This document shows positions 3,454 to 54,304 of a DNA stretch of 64,000 bases, one piece after another (positions within the stretch are counted from its first letter, which is position 1; each line of letters begins with the position of its first letter). The notes under the pieces were generated by a model. The model did no database searches. It was not told the origin of the DNA and saw nothing but the letters and a program-made list of their open reading frames with translations. Where the stretch lies: the NCBI RefSeq assembly GCF_003334815.1, contig NZ_QOWO01000015.1. The stretch is one strand, 5' to 3'. Position numbers and translations under genes: made by a program. The DNA comes from Escherichia coli. Its GTDB lineage: Bacteria > Pseudomonadota > Gammaproteobacteria > Enterobacterales > Enterobacteriaceae.

Positions 3454-4191
3454 ATGTATCCCGTCGACCTTCATATGCATACCGTTGCCAGCACACATGC
3501 ATATAGCACATTAAGTGATTACATTGCCCAGGCCAAACAAAAGGGCATTAAACTTTTTGCGATCACCGATCATGGCCCGGATATGGAAGATGCGCCGCAT
3601 CACTGGCACTTCATTAACATGCGTATCTGGCCGCGAGTGGTTGATGGGGTAGGGATCCTGCGCGGCATCGAAGCTAACATTAAAAATGTTGATGGTGAAA
3701 TTGACTGCAGCGGTAAAATGTTTGACTCGCTGGATCTAATTATTGCCGGTTTTCATGAGCCGGTTTTTGCGCCACATGACAAAGCGACCAATACACAAGC
3801 GATGATCGCCACTATCGCCAGCGGCAATGTGCATATAATAAGCCATCCCGGAAATCCCAAATATGAAATAGATGTGAAAGCCGTTGCTGAAGCAGCCGCG
3901 AAACATCAGGTGGCGCTGGAAATCAATAATTCCTCATTTTTACACTCACGTAAGGGCAGTGAAGACAACTGTCGTGAGGTAGCCGCAGCGGTACGTGATG
4001 CTGGAGGTTGGGTGGCATTAGGCTCGGATTCTCACACCGCGTTTACCATGGGGGAATTTGAAGAGTGTCTTAAAATCCTCGACGCGGTAGATTTTCCGCC
4101 AGAGCGCATTTTGAATGTTTCTCCGCGCCGCTTACTGAACTTCCTTGAATCTCGCGGTATGGCACCGATTGCGGAATTTGCAGACCTTTAA
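3454..4191 (+). CDS. ycdX: PHP-family zinc phosphatase YcdX, 245 aa
   Basis: Translation [20 protein letters not shown]... with PHP-domain His motifs. Confidence 0.9.
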
Positions 4192-4214
4192 TTACTAGTA
4201 ATGGAAATATATTA

Positions 4215-4769
4215 ATGAACGAGTTTTCTATCCTCTGTCGTGTGCTGGGTTCGCTCTATTACCGCCAACCACAAGATCCTTTACTGGTGCCGCTGTTTAC
4301 CCTGATTCGTGAGGGGAAATTGGCTGCGAACTGGCCACTGGAGCAGGATGAGTTGCTGACACGTTTGCAGAAAAGCTGTGATATGACGCAAGTCTCTGCC
4401 GATTACAATGCGTTGTTTATCGGCGATGAATGTGCTGTGCCGCCATATCGTAGCGCATGGGTTGAGGGCGCGACGGAAGCGGAAGTGCGCGCTTTTCTTT
4501 CTGAGCGAGGGATGCCATTAGCGGATACGCCAGCCGATCACATCGGCACATTGCTGCTCGCAGCTTCCTGGCTGGAAGATCAGTCAACGGAAGATGAGAG
4601 CGAAGCACTGGAAACACTGTTCAGTGAGTATCTGTTACCCTGGTGTGGTGCGTTCCTTGGCAAAGTGGAGGCCCATGCAACCACGCCTTTCTGGCGCACC
4701 ATGGCACCGCTAACCCGCGATGCCATTAGTGCAATGTGGGACGAGCTGGAAGAAGATTCTGAAGAATAA
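4215..4769 (+). CDS. ycdY: TorD-family redox enzyme maturation chaperone YcdY, 184 aa
   Basis: 184-aa ORF immediately downstream of ycdX; recognised translation. Confidence 0.85.
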   Translation: MNEFSILCRVLGSLYYRQPQDPLLVPLFTLIREGKLAANWPLEQDELLTRLQKSCDMTQVSADYNALFIGDECAVPPYRSAWVEGATEAEVRAFLSERGMPLADTPADHIGTLLLAASWLEDQSTEDESEALETLFSEYLLPWCGAFLGKVEAHATTPFWRTMAPLTRDAISAMWDELEEDSEE

Positions 4770-44608: not shown

Positions 44609-45562
44609 ATGCGTTTCAGTACACAGATGATGTACCAGCAAAACATGCGTGGTATCACCAATTCTCAGGCAGAATGGATGAAGTACGGCGAACAGATGTC
44701 GACGGGTAAGCGAGTCGTTAACCCTTCTGACGATCCCATTGCTGCATCACAAGCCGTAGTTCTCTCCCAGGCACAGGCGCAAAACAGCCAGTACACGCTG
44801 GCGCGTACTTTCGCCACTCAAAAAGTGTCACTGGAAGAGAGTGTACTTAGCCAGGTCACCACTGCTATCCAGAATGCTCAGGAAAAAATTGTCTACGCCA
44901 GCAATGGCACCTTGAGTGACGATGACCGGGCCTCGCTGGCTACGGATATTCAGGGGCTTCGTGACCAGTTGCTGAATCTGGCAAACACCACTGACGGTAA
45001 CGGGCGCTACATTTTTGCCGGTTATAAAACAGAGACTGCGCCGTTTAGCGAAGAGAAAGGGAAATACGTCGGTGGAGCAGAAAGTATTAAACAACAGGTC
45101 GATGCTTCGCGTTCGATGGTGATAGGGCACACGGGTGACAAAATTTTCGACAGTATTACCAGCAACGCGGTAGCGGAACCAGACGGTAGCGCTTCTGAAA
45201 CCAATCTTTTTGCCATGCTGGATAGTGCCATCGCAGCCCTGAAAACGCCGGTCGCGGATAGCGAAGCGGATAAAGAAACCGCCGCTGCGGCGTTAGATAA
45301 AACCAACCGCGGACTGAAAAACTCGCTGAACAATGTGCTGACTGTTCGCGCGGAATTAGGCACGCAGCTGAACGAACTGGAGTCGCTGGATTCATTAGGT
45401 AGCGATCGCGCTTTAGGGCAAACGCAGCAGATGAGCGATCTGGTTGATGTGGACTGGAATGCAACTATTTCATCTTACATCATGCAGCAAACGGCATTGC
45501 AGGCATCGTATAAAGCATTTACCGATATGCAGGGATTGTCGCTCTTCCAGCTCAGCAAATAA
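44609..45562 (+). CDS. flgL: Flagellar hook-filament junction protein 3 FlgL, 317 aa
   Basis: Recognised translation. Confidence 0.95.
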   Translation: MRFSTQMMYQQNMRGITNSQAEWMKYGEQMSTGKRVVNPSDDPIAASQAVVLSQAQAQNSQYTLARTFATQKVSLEESVLSQVTTAIQNAQEKIVYASNGTLSDDDRASLATDIQGLRDQLLNLANTTDGNGRYIFAGYKTETAPFSEEKGKYVGGAESIKQQVDASRSMVIGHTGDKIFDSITSNAVAEPDGSASETNLFAMLDSAIAALKTPVADSEADKETAAAALDKTNRGLKNSLNNVLTVRAELGTQLNELESLDSLGSDRALGQTQQMSDLVDVDWNATISSYIMQQTALQASYKAFTDMQGLSLFQLSK

Positions 45563-45715
45563 TTTCGCTTTAAAACATATCATGAAACTGGGTATGTTTT
45601 GTCTGCCTGCTCTGGGATCGCTGGGGCGGGCATTTTTTTGCCTATTTTGCATTGTTGGTTAGCAAGGATGCCATTCGATGAATTTTAATATGTTGATTCA
45701 AAGATGAAATAAAAA

Positions 45716-45745
45716 AGCCCTGGCAGTTACCAGGGCTTGATTACT
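45716..45745 (-). terminator. Rho-independent terminator downstream of rne (hairpin shared by convergent flgL and rne)
   Basis: Hairpin gccctggcagttaccagggc flanked by an A-run on + (T-run on the minus strand). Confidence 0.65.
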
Positions 45746-45757
45746 TTGAGCTAATTA

Positions 45758-48700
45758 TTACTCAACAGGTTGCGGACGCGCAGGAGCGGCAGAGGCATGA
45801 TGTGTTGCCGTATGACCACCTGCGGCACCTTTACCTTCGAAGGCAAAAGTAGGGCGCTGCCAGTCACTGTGACGCGGTGCCTCCGGAACATATTCCGGTG
45901 CTGGAGCGCGCGTCATTGGCGCGGTAGCGTGGTTATGCTCAACGGTGACCTCAGGTTCGACCGCAGCTACCGTTTCAACTTCTGCTGCGACTTCAGCGAC
46001 TACTGGCGCGGCAGGTTGAGCAACAACTTCAGGTTCAGCAACTACAACCTCAGCAGTTTCGACAACTTCTTCAATATCTGCCGTCTCTTCCTGCGGTTCA
46101 ACCACCGGTTCTGCTTGTTCTGCAACTTCCTGGGCTACGGCAACATCAGACTCGGTAATCACCTGCGGCTGTTCAGTTACCGCGGCAGCGATCACTTCAG
46201 GATGCGTCGTTTCAACCACTTCCGGTTGCGGTTCGGCAACCTGAACGGGGGCTTCTACGACACCGGCCACTTCTTCAACAACTGGCGCGCTAACAACCGG
46301 TTCGATAGCGGCGGCGACAGGGACCTCAGTCACCATCGGCTGCACATGTACTTCTTCCTGTTCGCGCTGCTCTTCAACCTGTACATCTTGCGGACGTACA
46401 ATTGGATAGCGGATCCAGACTTTGCCAGAGGCCAGTTCCGGAGACGCGCACGCTACGGTCAACGGCATTGGCGACTGGGTTGGATAACGCTCGTCACGAT
46501 AGCGACGACGACGCTGACCACTTACGCGCAGGTGACGAGGCGAGCGGCGAGAACGACGCGGCATGCCACCGTTGTCACGGTTATCAGCATTGTTCTCTTC
46601 TTGCTGTTCTGGTGCAGTTTGCGCTACGACTGGCAGCGGGACTTTCACCAGTTCTGTGCGTGGAGCTGGCGCTTCCTGAACAATTGGTTCGGCAGCGACA
46701 GTTTCTTCAACCACCGGTGCGACTACCGCTTCTTCGGCTACGCTTTGCTCGTAACGCACTTTCTGATTGAGCTGACGCTGTTTACGACGCGGCTGAACCG
46801 GACGTACACGTTCTTCCTGTTCGGTTTCCTGAACAGATTGCTCTTCAACATTCAGCGCCTTCGCTTCTTGTTGCGCCTGACGTTTATCATCATTACGGCG
46901 GCGGCTACGTTCACGACGCGGCGCTTGCTGCTCGTCGGCGGTACGCGCTTTTTCCGTTACCTCAGCCTGCTGACGGCTCTCACGCGTCTCGGCAGTCTGC
47001 TGCTGTGCCTGGCGACGATTACGACGGTTTTCTTCGCGATTATCGCTGCCTTCAGTACGTTCACTACGGGTGTCGCGGCGCTCATTACGGTCACGGCGGT
47101 TGTTCTGACGAGGCTTGCGACGATCCTGTTGACGTTCCGGTTTCGCTTCTGCTTTCGGTGCTGGTTGCTCGGTCGGTTTGGTTTCTTCACCACCGCTGAA
47201 CAGCGCTTTCAGTGCGCCGAAGAAGCGGCTCAACAGCCCAGGTTGTGCAGGAGCTGCTGGTGTTGCCGGTGCAGCTTTCGGTGCTGGAGCTACAACAGGC
47301 GCGGCAGGTTCAGCTGGCGTTGGCGCAGGCGGCACATCCGGCATGGCAAAGGTTGCCAGCGCAGGTTGTTCCGGACGCTTACGTTCAGCGAACTCTTCTT
47401 CAGACGGCAGCGCCATCGCTTCTTCATGCAGCTTCGGCAGCATGTAGCTTAAGGTTGGGGTTTCTTCCCCTTTACGCACGCGCAGCACGTGGTAGTGCGG
47501 GGTTTCCATCTGATCGTTTGGCACAATTACACAGCGCACACCGTCCTGACGAGTTTCAATGGCATTTACCGCAGAACGTTTTTCATTCAGCAGGTAAGAA
47601 GCGATTGGCACAGGAACAATGGCGTGAACTTCCTGGGTGTTCTCTTTCAGCGCTTCTTCTTCGATCAGACGCAGAATAGAGAGCGACAGCGATTCGTTGT
47701 CACGCACGGTGCCAGTACCAGAACAACGCGGACAAACGTGATGACTGGATTCACCCAGTGATGGGCTCAGGCGCTGACGGGACATTTCCAGCAGGCCAAA
47801 GCGAGAAATATGGCTGATTTGAATACGCGCACGGTCCTGACGCACCGCTTCACGCAGACGGTTTTCTACCGCACGCTGGTGGCGTACTGGCGTCATGTCG
47901 ATGAAGTCGATAACAATCAGGCCGCCGAGGTCACGCAGGCGCAGCTGACGAGCAATCTCATCGGCAGCTTCGAGGTTAGTGTTAAACGCGGTTTCTTCGA
48001 TATCGCCGCCGCGGGTCGCGCGTGCGGAGTTGATGTCGATGGCCGTTAACGCTTCGGTGCTGTCGATAACAATGGAACCACCAGACGGCAGACGAACTTC
48101 ACGCTGGAAGGCGGACTCGATCTGTGACTCGATCTGGTAGTGGCTGAACAGCGGGATCTCGCCGGTGTACAGTTTGATTTTGCTGCTGAAATCCGGGCGA
48201 CCTAATGCAGCGATATGCTGACGTGCCAGTTCGAGCACTTTCGGGTTATCGATAAGGATTTCGCCGATGTCCTGACGTAAGTAATCGCGGAATGCGCGAA
48301 CGATTACGTTGCTCTCCTGATGAATCAGGAACGGGGCCGGGCGGCTTTCAGCGGCTTTTTTGATGGCTTCCCAGTGTTTCAGACGGAAGCTTAAATCCCA
48401 TTGCAGCGCCTCAGCAGATTTGCCGACGCCAGCGGTGCGCACGATAAGCCCCATGCCTTCCGGCAGTTCAAGGCTTGCCAGTGCTTCTTTTAATTCGGTA
48501 CGGTCGTCGCCTTCGATACGGCGAGAAATGCCACCCGCGCGCGGGTTGTTCGGCATCAGAACCAGATAGCTACCCGCCAGACTGATAAAGGTGGTTAATG
48601 CCGCGCCTTTGTTGCCGCGCTCTTCTTTATCGATCTGAACAATGACTTCCTGACCTTCACGCAACACATCTTTAATGTTGGGACGACCATGAGCACTGTA

Positions 48701-48943
48701 GTTAGCAGGGAAATATTCGCGGGCAATTTCTTTTAGTGGGAGGAAACCGTGACGTTCAGCGCCGTAATCAACAAAAGCAGCTTCCAGACTCGGTTCAATG
48801 CGGGTGATTTTACCTTTGTAGATGTTTGCCTTTTTCTGCTCGTGCCCTGGACTTTCGATATCCAGGTCATACAGACGCTGCCCATCTACAAGGGCAACGC
48901 GCAACTCTTCCTGCTGAGTTGCGTTGATTAACATTCTTTTCAT
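45758..48943 (-). CDS. rne: Ribonuclease E, 1061 aa: N-terminal catalytic half plus Arg/Pro/Glu-rich low-complexity degradosome scaffold
   Basis: Translation [61 protein letters not shown]...; length 1061. Confidence 0.97.
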
Positions 48944-49304
48944 CGTAACTTACTCATTATTCTTACATTGACGACTAAGCTGCGGGCAAAGTAACGCCTT
49001 TCCGGGTGTGAACCGATGGCCTCGTGTCTAGTCGCGTCGCCAACCTCACGGTTATCGTCAGCTCAAAGAGGCGCAGAGTGTCGGTTGCCCGTTTTTCATG
49101 CGGAAAAACAGCGCAATTATCAAAGAAACAGACTGGGTATTACTCTCCAGAAATATTTCCATCTACCGGTAAGGACTGCAACCCGCAGCCCGCTAACTGC
49201 CTGAAAGATCAATACGTCTTACGCCATTGCTGCGTGGATGATCGGTCGGGCAAAATGGGTTATTCCGTAAAATTTCTTGTTTTAACAAGGATGGACACGG
49301 AAAC
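48944..49304 (-). promoter_or_regulatory. Long rne 5' untranslated leader (autoregulatory)
   Basis: Non-coding region upstream of the rne ATG; extent taken from the known 361-nt leader, not determined from the sequence. Confidence 0.55.
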
Positions 49305-49398
49305 GGCCTCATTATTCCACTGCAAGCCTTGTTATAGCAAGATGACTTTTACCATTTATCACCCGCTTACTCACAGTTTTTTCACTTCTTGCTGGTGA
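49024..49398 (+). CDS. yceQ: Doubtful ORF antisense to the rne leader (corresponds to the annotated hypothetical yceQ)
   Basis: 124-aa ORF with no recognisable domain and no convincing RBS; likely non-coding. Confidence 0.2.
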
Positions 49399-53335: not shown

Positions 53336-54289
53336 ATGTATACGAAGATTATTGGTACTGGCAGCTATCTGCCCGAACAAGTGCGGACAAACGCCGATTT
53401 GGAAAAAATGGTGGACACCTCTGACGAGTGGATTGTCACTCGTACCGGTATCCGCGAACGCCACATTGCCGCGCCAAACGAAACCGTTTCAACCATGGGC
53501 TTTGAAGCGGCGACACGCGCAATTGAGATGGCGGGCATTGAGAAAGACCAGATTGGCCTGATCGTTGTGGCAACGACTTCTGCTACGCACGCTTTCCCGA
53601 GCGCAGCTTGTCAGATTCAAAGCATGTTGGGCATTAAAGGTTGCCCGGCATTTGACGTTGCAGCAGCCTGCGCAGGTTTCACCTATGCATTAAGCGTAGC
53701 CGATCAATACGTGAAATCTGGGGCGGTGAAGTATGCTCTGGTCGTCGGTTCCGATGTACTGGCGCGCACCTGCGATCCAACCGATCGTGGGACTATTATT
53801 ATTTTTGGCGATGGCGCGGGCGCTGCGGTGCTGGCTGCCTCTGAAGAGCCGGGAATCATTTCCACCCATCTGCATGCCGACGGTAGTTATGGTGAATTGC
53901 TGACGCTGCCAAACGCCGACCGCGTGAATCCAGAGAATTCAATTCATCTGACGATGGCGGGCAACGAAGTCTTCAAGGTTGCGGTAACGGAACTGGCGCA
54001 CATCGTTGATGAGACGCTGGCGGCGAATAATCTTGACCGTTCTCAACTGGACTGGCTGGTTCCGCATCAGGCTAACCTGCGTATTATCAGTGCAACGGCG
54101 AAAAAACTCGGTATGTCTATGGATAATGTCGTGGTGACGCTGGATCGCCACGGTAATACCTCTGCGGCCTCTGTCCCGTGCGCGCTGGATGAAGCTGTAC
54201 GCGACGGGCGCATTAAGCCGGGGCAGTTGGTTCTGCTTGAAGCCTTTGGCGGTGGATTCACCTGGGGCTCCGCGCTGGTTCGTTTCTAG
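53336..54289 (+). CDS. fabH: 3-oxoacyl-ACP synthase III FabH, 317 aa
   Basis: Translation [45 protein letters not shown]... Confidence 0.97.
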
Positions 54290-54304
54290 GATAAGGATTA
54301 AAAC

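Follow-up and report, generated by a model that had tools for sequence, protein, structure and literature searches.

The rne locus and the RNase E scaffold tail

The stretch of DNA analyzed here (64,000 nucleotides, hereafter the window) belongs to an E. coli K-12–type chromosome, and carries at 45758–48943 (−) an ORF of 1061 codons plus a stop codon that was assigned to rne, the gene for ribonuclease E, from the ORF list, the Pfam domains, and the annotation of MG1655, which places rne (b1084) at the same coordinates. Pfam searches of the translation detected the S1 (PF00575, residues 36–117), RNase_E_G (PF10150, residues 121–391, E = 1e-98), thioredoxin-like RNase_E_G_Thio (PF20833, residues 403–488), and PNPase_C (PF12111, residues 1022–1058, E = 1.9e-17) domains. 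A synteny comparison showed that the gene order flgL–rne–rluC matches that of the annotated rne locus. The identity and orientation of the gene were confirmed by the upstream match to its 5′ UTR autoregulatory element (Rfam RF00040, rne5) at 48968–49304 (−), with a score of 260 bits (gathering score, 180). The rne region was 100% identical to that of the K-12 derivative MC4100, and the locus carried a ribonuclease E annotation in all 5426 complete E. coli genomes. The window as a whole is not an exact copy of MG1655, since the offset between the two sequences shifts by 1 bp near 25.8 kb and changes once more beyond ~50.5 kb, and a few SNPs separate them; gene coordinates were adjusted for these offsets before the codon tables were built. 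Together, these results establish that the gene is rne, which encodes the RNase E/G-family member that scaffolds the degradosome.

The 3′ half of rne encodes the non-catalytic scaffold region of RNase E, which has been delimited to residues 530–1061 (PMC4435900) and corresponds to 45761–47356 (−) in the window; this segment is intrinsically disordered. Binding of RhlB, enolase, and PNPase as well as membrane attachment have been documented for this exact protein (PMC4435900), and a check of the sequence against the same source located MTS, AR1, HBS, AR2, EBS, and PBS all at their published residues. The arginine-rich, RNA-binding AR1 segment (residues 604–644) lies at 47012–47134 (−), the arginine-rich AR2 segment (residues 796–814, with RRRR at its end) at 46502–46558 (−), and the PNPase-binding site, PBS (residues 1021–1061), which was independently recognized by Pfam (PF12111), at 45761–45883 (−); further tail segments with published coordinates occupy 47198–47251, 46751–46789, and 46394–46444 (all −). 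An initial sequence-only reading of this DNA had described the 3′ half of rne as a degradosome-binding scaffold, and the PNPase_C match and the microdomains at their published positions bear this out. The runs it quoted (RRRRY, a second longer string, and the PAP and VVE types) are all present in the translation, AR1 holding the string that it had cited.

The bias that the sequence-only reading had labeled Arg/Pro/Glu-rich is real, but the label is incomplete, as residues 511–1061 are rich in Ala (14.9%), Glu (14.5%), Val (12.2%), Pro (11.4%), Arg (10.2%), and Gln (8.3%) and poor in Leu (2.4%) and Ser (3.4%), compared with 10.2% Leu and 6.7% Ser in the N-terminal half. GC content at codon positions 1, 2, and 3 of the tail was 0.80, 0.48, and 0.45, respectively, the last value being lower than that of the catalytic half (0.56). 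DNA-level repeats were considered as a cause of the bias and rejected, as TRF returned only two trivial 12-bp × 2 arrays from 45600–49000; the bias of the tail is thus compositional and not repetitive at the DNA level.

A 560-codon open frame opposite the tail and its cause

Opposite the tail, an ORF of 560 codons with a TTG start runs from 45770 to 47452 (+), exactly where the sequence-only reading had placed it. It is the longest unannotated ORF of the window, followed by ORFs of 374 aa (opposite ptsG) and 293 aa (opposite fabH/fabD); these two and a 198-aa ORF opposite flgH all lie in the codon-opposite frame. Four shorter ORFs (122, 64, 89, and 155 aa) share the plus strand of the region, and an out-of-frame ORF of 78 aa lies on the minus strand. 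The 122-aa ORF (46402–46770, +) and the 155-aa ORF (47212–47679, +) lie in other antisense frames and behaved as chance ORFs on resampling: the former had no NCBIfam match, and the latter matched a SigE-family model of NCBIfam only at chance level (17 bits; cut-off, 141.55), so that this assignment was rejected. In both remaining antisense frames the longest stretch without a stop, 104 codons in one and 159 in the other, was typical of synonymous resamplings of RNase E (P = 0.95 and 0.42).

Base 45770 of the plus strand pairs with the third position of a sense codon, that is, the 560-codon ORF stands in the codon-opposite frame of rne. Each of its codons is the reverse complement of one rne codon, and an antisense TAA, TAG, or TGA is possible only where rne has TTA (Leu), CTA (Leu), or TCA (Ser), in keeping with the correspondence of antisense frame-0 stops to sense CTA, TTA, and TCA (PMC11266595). 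rne contains 11 such codons in residues 1–498 and none in residues 499–1061; the 15 Leu and 20 Ser of these last 563 residues are all encoded by other codons, tail Leu by CTG in 10 of 13 cases and Ser mostly by TCT or AGC. The TAA that ends the ORF (47450–47452, +) is the reverse complement of the TTA for Leu498, the last TTA, CTA, or TCA codon of rne. The codon-opposite frame is open because these codons do not occur in residues 499–1061: the tail, in which Ala, Glu, Val, Pro, Arg, and Gln predominate and Leu and Ser are few, thus leaves it open from Leu498 past the rne stop codon. The ORF owes its unusual length to a parent sequence that is disordered and short of Leu and Ser, not a folded domain. 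What causes it is therefore the scarcity of Leu and Ser combined with the lack of TTA, CTA, and TCA, not richness in Arg, Pro, and Glu as such. The 560-codon ORF is almost certainly a non-coding shadow of the disordered RNase E tail and not a second gene, and it is probably not translated into a functional protein.

Length of the open frame compared with chance

The open run of 564 codons is 2.6 times the longest codon-opposite run in 52 other genes of the window. When RNase E was resampled synonymously, the longest antisense run had a median of 238 codons; 85% of resamplings reached 200 codons or more, and 0.3% the full 564. The analytic probability of the full run was 0.004 with the codon usage of the window, 0.015 with that of the N-terminal half of rne, and 0.017 with that of fab/ptsG. 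These probabilities (0.003–0.017) are post hoc and uncorrected for the choice of the most extreme ORF of the window. Resampling therefore attributes ~240 codons to composition, and we rejected the idea that composition alone explains 560 aa: the sequence-only reading, which had derived the whole ORF from biased composition, holds for this part, the rest being due to codon choice and chance. The excess length is modest and is best ascribed to chance in the choice of codons.

Two features of the tail count against reading the ORF as an artefact. The absence of TTA, CTA, and TCA from all 35 Leu/Ser codons is somewhat unlikely, and the GC3 of the tail is low, so that it does not reflect simple avoidance of A-ending codons. 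The open frame might owe its completeness not to luck but to selection on rne against these three codons in its tail, the ORF still being non-coding. Such selection could reflect translational efficiency or a need to keep slowly decoded codons out of a disordered segment, and the ORF would again be a by-product. A Fisher test of these codons among Leu and Ser codons (0 of 35 in the tail versus 11 of 83 in the catalytic half, p = 0.017) and the preference of the tail for CTG, TCT, and AGC point in this direction, such Leu and Ser usage being typical of well-expressed E. coli genes. However, the sample comprises only 35 codons and the test was post hoc, natural E. coli lineages are found with CTA at L581 and with TCA at 554, most orthologues freely use TCA and TTA in the tail, and the lower GC3 of the tail relative to the catalytic half indicates no general shift toward preferred codons. 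We therefore regard codon selection as an unlikely explanation and chance in codon choice as the preferred one.

Conservation, selection, and coding character of the antisense frame

Alternatively, the K-12 lineage might translate this ORF, in whole or in part (for instance its 416-aa ATG-initiated portion), as a true antisense overlapping gene. In support of this, the ORF is longer than the antisense runs in 99.7% of the synonymous resamplings, and reports of embedded antisense ORFs that are translated exist for E. coli and Pseudomonas aeruginosa (PMC7103648, PMC8850804). However, the frame is interrupted in close relatives: its tail portion contains five stops in Escherichia albertii, three in Salmonella, and one to six across four full-length Citrobacter loci. 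Overall, antisense stops in the tail were present in 76 of 79 full-length orthologues and absent from only 3; across 80 orthologues the median longest antisense run was 317 codons, with varying position. Within E. coli, a stop was present in 3 of 11 sampled alleles, and among the 5426 complete genomes the A554S (TCA) allele occurred in 95 and the L581 CTA allele in 120, such that stop-creating alleles at just these two sites affect at least 215. The antisense ORF is thus maintained neither across species nor within E. coli.

As a separate observation, long antisense ORFs spanning the CTD recur in a few other genera, namely in Klebsiella oxytoca (705 codons), Pantoea piersonii (674 codons), and Pluralibacter gergoviae (606 codons); this recurrence counts against an artefact.

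Selection was estimated as dN/dS from a protein-guided codon alignment. In nine pairwise comparisons of the tail, dN/dS was 0.09–0.21 in the rne frame and 0.77–1.64 in the antisense frame, i.e., 0.1–0.2 for the sense product versus about 1 for the antisense product. In addition, position-by-position comparison of equal-length alleles showed that substitutions within E. coli cluster at the third position of sense codons. The rne frame is constrained while the antisense product is under no purifying selection. An antisense overlapping gene would be marked by an open frame that is conserved and by purifying selection on its product, and both are absent here.

The coding statistics agreed with these results. 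The sense frame had a coding-versus-shadow log-odds of +0.418 and the antisense frame one of −0.418; for real genes the range was +0.26 to +0.80. The GC3 of the 1.7-kb mirror ORF (0.80) matched the GC1 of the tail (0.80). The antisense product would consist of 15% Arg, 13% Phe, 12% Leu, 4% Cys, 3% Trp, and 0.4% Lys, an extreme composition unlike that of real proteins. The codon-usage check of both strands proposed in the sequence-only reading thus yielded the statistics of a shadow frame for the antisense strand.

That reading had also predicted that homology searches with the antisense translations would give no hits. Pfam and NCBIfam searches of the antisense ORF indeed matched no family, but five unnamed protein clusters were matched among 5.8 billion, all of them wrong-strand translations of this very locus. 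Cluster P0001 (268 sequences) shows that the ORF has been output as a protein by gene callers, which could be taken in favor of an antisense gene; in both database calls whose contigs we inspected, however, rne was interrupted by frameshifts. Another detail of these matches is that one of the five clusters is a fold-back chimera deposited as ‘ribonuclease E, partial’. In these searches, the antisense product had no homologues apart from the rne locus. Codon statistics, dN/dS, conservation, and family searches all agree with the earlier view that the 560-aa ORF is not a gene.

Expression signals around the open frame

The 195-bp flgL–rne spacer, toward which the flgKL operon converges on rne, contains terminator-like hairpins on both strands. 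One, followed by a T-run, lies at 45715–45738 (−), 20 nt downstream of the rne stop codon; the other, at 45604–45632 (+), belongs to flgL and the FlgO sRNA (annotated at 45562–45639) and would be expected to halt plus-strand transcription ~140 nt ahead of the 560-codon ORF. A consensus promoter scan of the plus strand from 45400 to 47600 gave a single match, which lies inside flgL, ahead of FlgO and a terminator; 0.9 matches were expected in shuffled sequences, and beyond the finding of no other promoter-like site in this interval the scan is uninformative. A weak AGGAG-like (SD-like) sequence precedes the ATGs at 45797 and 45800 near the 5′ end of the ORF, which counts against an artefact and would favor an antisense gene. 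A literature search found no antisense gene or RNA in rne, the text matches to ‘rne’ in two papers not being whole words, and the main text of a survey of embedded antisense genes in E. coli does not name rne. Taking these signals together with the interrupted frame, the dN/dS values, and the shadow-type codon statistics, we consider a genuine antisense gene extremely unlikely.

The antisense strand might also be transcribed as a regulatory RNA directed against the 3′ half of rne, the ORF being irrelevant to its function. Antisense transcription is widespread in E. coli, and the convergence of flgKL on rne would be compatible with it. Against this stand the hairpins on both strands of the spacer, the restriction of plus-strand promoter-like sites in 45400–47600 to the one within flgL, and the lack of any link in the literature searched; moreover, such an RNA would leave the open frame unexplained, and we hold it to be very improbable. 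Exceedingly improbable, too, is that part of the 560-codon frame is occasionally transcribed and translated in the K-12–type majority as a young, lineage-restricted proto-gene, its completeness then not being pure chance. If this were true, the proto-gene would be among the longest antisense-embedded coding sequences in a bacterium, situated on a disordered region that tolerates dual coding.

Discussion

The 560-codon ORF, read as a non-coding shadow of the RNase E tail, is an ordinary and already known kind of finding. rne and its scaffold tail are textbook material, and codon-opposite shadow ORFs are a known consequence of the genetic code. Its scientific weight is small, and its practical value is that of a clean, quantified teaching case of ORF-track artefacts. 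The mirror ORF is emitted as a protein by gene callers when sequencing errors break the true rne frame, and both annotators and those who mine orphan proteins should expect mirror ORFs opposite disordered segments rich in Ala, Glu, Val, Pro, and Arg.

The gene itself does not differ from E. coli K-12 RNase E (rne, b1084); it is the same gene with an identical sequence. The ORF opposite it follows the same stop rule as other shadow ORFs of the codon-opposite frame, which is termed antisense ‘frame 0’ in PMC11266595 and often ‘frame −1’ elsewhere, and shares this frame with the shadow ORFs opposite ptsG, fabH/fabD, and flgH, but is unusually long, with 564 open codons compared with at most 214 in 52 other genes of the window. 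It also resembles pop, a 603-bp gene opposite ompA in EHEC (PMC7103648), and olg1 and olg2 of P. aeruginosa, of 957 and 1536 nt (PMC8850804), in that a long ORF is fully embedded antisense to an annotated, well-expressed gene, and its length (1683 nt) is similar to theirs or greater. However, pop, olg1, and olg2 are reported on the strength of RNA-seq and Ribo-seq, and purifying selection has been reported for the P. aeruginosa genes, whereas the frame opposite rne has an antisense dN/dS of about 1 and is broken both in related species and in E. coli lineages.

Results

The rne locus and its scaffold-encoding half

The window corresponds to an E. coli K-12-type chromosome, with gene order and coordinates that agree with MG1655 1095425–1159424 except for a few SNPs (window 28669, 30382, 36000, and 41149) and single-base offsets, one near 25.8 kb (~25800; the bssS–dinI spacer by MG1655 coordinates) and a second somewhere beyond rluC, past ~50.5 kb (~50500). 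The window is therefore K-12-like and not the MG1655 reference itself; across the rne region it shows 100% identity with MC4100, a derivative of K-12. The ORF listing gave a 1061-aa ORF on the minus strand (45758–48943) and a 560-aa ORF with a TTG start on the plus strand (45770–47452), the latter at the coordinates given by the sequence-only reading, together with smaller plus-strand ORFs of 122, 64, 89, and 155 aa. The 1061-aa ORF, with the Rfam rne5 5′ UTR element ahead of it (48968–49304, minus strand), carries the Pfam domains S1, RNase_E_G, the RNase E/G thioredoxin-like domain, and PNPase_C, has the same neighbors as in MG1655 (flgL and rluC), and is annotated as rne in 5426 of the 5426 complete E. 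coli genomes searched. This gene is rne, and its 3′ half is the well-known scaffold-encoding part.

Residues 1–529 of RNase E form the catalytic region and residues 530–1061 a non-catalytic, intrinsically disordered one (PMC4435900). When the published microdomains (PMC4435900) were converted to minus-strand window coordinates, the MTS (residues 565–582) fell at 47198–47251, AR1 (604–644) at 47012–47134, HBS (719–731) at 46751–46789, AR2 (796–814) at 46502–46558, EBS (834–850) at 46394–46444, and PBS (1021–1061) at 45761–45883. The earlier description of the rne 3′ half as a scaffold agrees with this map, and the strings it quoted lie in AR1 and AR2. Its label "Arg/Pro/Glu-rich" captured a real bias incompletely, since residues 511–1061 contain 14.9% A, 14.5% E, 12.2% V, 11.4% P, 10.2% R, and 8.3% Q. 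What matters for the open mirror frame is that Leu (2.4%) and Ser (3.4%) are depleted relative to the N-terminal half (10.2% and 6.7%, respectively). The codons of the abundant residues all begin with G or C, and the tail (45761–47356, minus strand) accordingly has GC1/GC2/GC3 values of 0.80/0.48/0.45, against a mean of 0.56/0.41/0.53 for the 52 other window genes; GC3 of the mirror frame is therefore 0.80, which mimics a high-GC3 coding signal. No tandem repetition was found at the DNA level in the rne region. The plus-strand AT skew falls to −0.5 around 46900–47200 in the tail.

Two further features of the window were recorded. The annotated CDS yceQ (DUF2655, b1085; 49078–49398, plus strand) is almost wholly antisense to the rne5 element; it is either a true small gene that shares its DNA with a structured UTR or, at this other end of rne, one more questionable ORF call. 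At 1536–2158, directly adjoining the serX tRNA-Ser gene, a 181-bp unit is present in 3.4 copies at 100% identity and appears to hold a fragment resembling the serX tRNA 3′ end.

Origin and length of the open antisense frame

Plus-strand base 45770 pairs with position 3 of a sense codon, so antisense codons and rne codons correspond one to one as reverse complements. In such a codon-opposite frame, TAA, TAG, and TGA can come only from sense TTA, CTA, and TCA. These codons occur 11 times in residues 1–498 of rne and 0 times in residues 499–1061, where Leu is encoded 15 times, by CTG, TTG, or CTC, and Ser 20 times, by TCT, AGC, AGT, or TCG. The last of the 11 is the TTA of Leu498, which is the TAA (47450–47452) ending the 560-aa ORF; the open stretch extends over 564 codons from this stop to a TAA at 45752, past the rne stop codon. 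The window's other long ORFs that lack annotation stand in the same frame relation to a gene: one of 374 aa opposite ptsG (62752–63876, minus strand), one of 293 aa across fabH/fabD (53939–54820, minus strand), and one of 198 aa opposite flgH. This shared relation is the general shadow-ORF phenomenon, and the ptsG and fabH/fabD cases show it to be general in this window.

We compared the length with chance by holding the RNase E protein constant and redrawing synonymous codons from the usage of the 52 other window genes. The longest codon-opposite open run had a median of 238 codons; it measured 200 codons or more in 85% of trials, 300 or more in 18%, and 564 or more in 0.27%. Composition thus accounts for a shadow ORF of great length, whereas its full extent is not explained in this way, the rest being codon choice. 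Calculated analytically, the probability of finding no TTA/CTA/TCA among the 35 Leu/Ser codons was 0.004 with window codon usage, 0.015 with that of the rne N-terminal half, and 0.017 with that of the well-expressed fab/ptsG genes; Fisher's test on these codons among Leu/Ser codons (0/35 versus 11/83) gave p = 0.017. The longest runs in the other two antisense frames, 104 and 159 codons, were ordinary (P = 0.95 and 0.42). The excess is modest, and its significance is uncorrected for the choice of this ORF as the most extreme of the window, in a genome of thousands of genes; the small residue left over is a length about double that predicted from composition alone.

Homology, selection, and expression signals

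The 560-aa ORF matched no Pfam or NCBIfam family. The sequence-only reading had expected no hits at all for the antisense translation, which was slightly wrong: five matches were found among 5.8 billion clustered proteins, all from the same rne locus and unnamed or mis-assembled. In both readable contigs where a gene caller had emitted the antisense ORF, frameshifts split rne: contig L094 (ORF at 3501–4676, 391 aa) has rne pieces of 153, 264, and 186 aa, and contig L095 (3501–4751, 416 aa, in a cluster of 268 member sequences) has pieces of 979 and 134 aa. In the L095 gene table, the 979-aa RNase E ORF that remains is not listed as a call. A 760-aa NCBI/UniRef match (P0004), deposited under the name "ribonuclease E, partial [Escherichia coli]", consists of RNase E residues 1 to ~576 fused to antisense-translated tail sequence that heads back toward residue 557; it is a fold-back chimeric contig, kept open solely by the lack of stops in the mirror frame. 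These same-locus matches reinforce the artefact reading.

dN/dS was calculated by the Nei–Gojobori method on protein-guided codon alignments of residues 499–1061, with reverse-complemented codons for the antisense frame, in nine comparisons, the nearest within E. coli and the farthest with Enterobacter and Klebsiella. It was 0.09–0.21 in the rne frame and 0.77–1.64 in the antisense frame; the disordered tail is clearly under purifying selection as RNase E, whereas the antisense product is not. Under a coding- versus shadow-codon model, the log-odds per codon were +0.418 for the rne frame and −0.418 for the 560-aa ORF, with real genes at +0.26 to +0.80. The hypothetical product (R 15.4, F 13.2, L 12.3, T 8.9, C 4.3, W 3.0, K 0.4, and P 0.5%) is a mirror image of the tail composition.

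Between 45400 and 47600, the single plus-strand sigma-70-like match lies inside flgL. Terminator-like hairpins were found at the end of flgL and its 3′ sRNA FlgO (45604–45632, plus strand) and after rne (45738–45715, minus strand). An AGGAG-like sequence upstream of the ATGs at 45797 and 45800 in the plus-strand ORF is a weak signal, expected by chance in purine-rich mirror sequence. No report of an antisense gene or RNA within rne was found in the literature searched.

Conservation across and within species

Among orthologous rne loci from 80 species, each represented once and scored in the same antisense frame, long open runs were generic (median 317 codons, range 139–705) and varied in position. 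The closest relatives carry tail stops (five in E. albertii, three in Salmonella enterica arizonae, and one to six in four full-length Citrobacter loci), and only 3 of 79 full-length orthologues, scattered in the tree, lack a stop beyond residue 500 (Klebsiella oxytoca, Pluralibacter gergoviae, and Pantoea piersonii). Of the 11 non-reference alleles sampled within E. coli, 3 bear stops (TCA at 554, CTA at 581, and CTA at 947). Using 41-base probes centred on the variants, we counted the 554 TCA allele in 95 and the 581 CTA allele in 120 of the 5426 complete genomes, the control probe for the reference allele at 581 matching 5221; healthy natural E. coli lineages therefore exist without an intact ORF. 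Since the open frame is distributed patchily in the phylogeny and stop alleles segregate, the extra length is best explained by luck in 35 codons.

Two of the compared loci were unusual in themselves. The record titled Escherichia coli SCPM-O-B-8794, used as a species representative, is strongly diverged from the window at rne (dS 0.31–0.42, comparable to E. albertii) and probably belongs to a cryptic Escherichia clade, outside E. coli sensu stricto. In E. coli GN4738 (NZ_CM177114.1), the annotated rne has only 858 aa owing to an in-frame 203-codon deletion of residues 743–945 (window 46109–46717), bounded on either side by a copy of the 13-bp direct repeat ACCGGTGGTTGAA, that removes AR2 and the enolase-binding site; this allele could be a real natural scaffold truncation or an assembly collapse.

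Discussion

The antisense dN/dS, the negative log-odds, and the stops in relatives support the earlier proposal that the 560-aa plus-strand ORF is an artefact, and we regard it and the smaller ones as very probably non-coding by-products of rne. The mechanism behind that proposal can now be given exactly: residues 499–1061 contain no sense TTA, CTA, or TCA. The correspondence of antisense stops with sense CTA/TTA/TCA follows the same principle as in PMC11266595, and the finding is already known, both in kind and in this instance.
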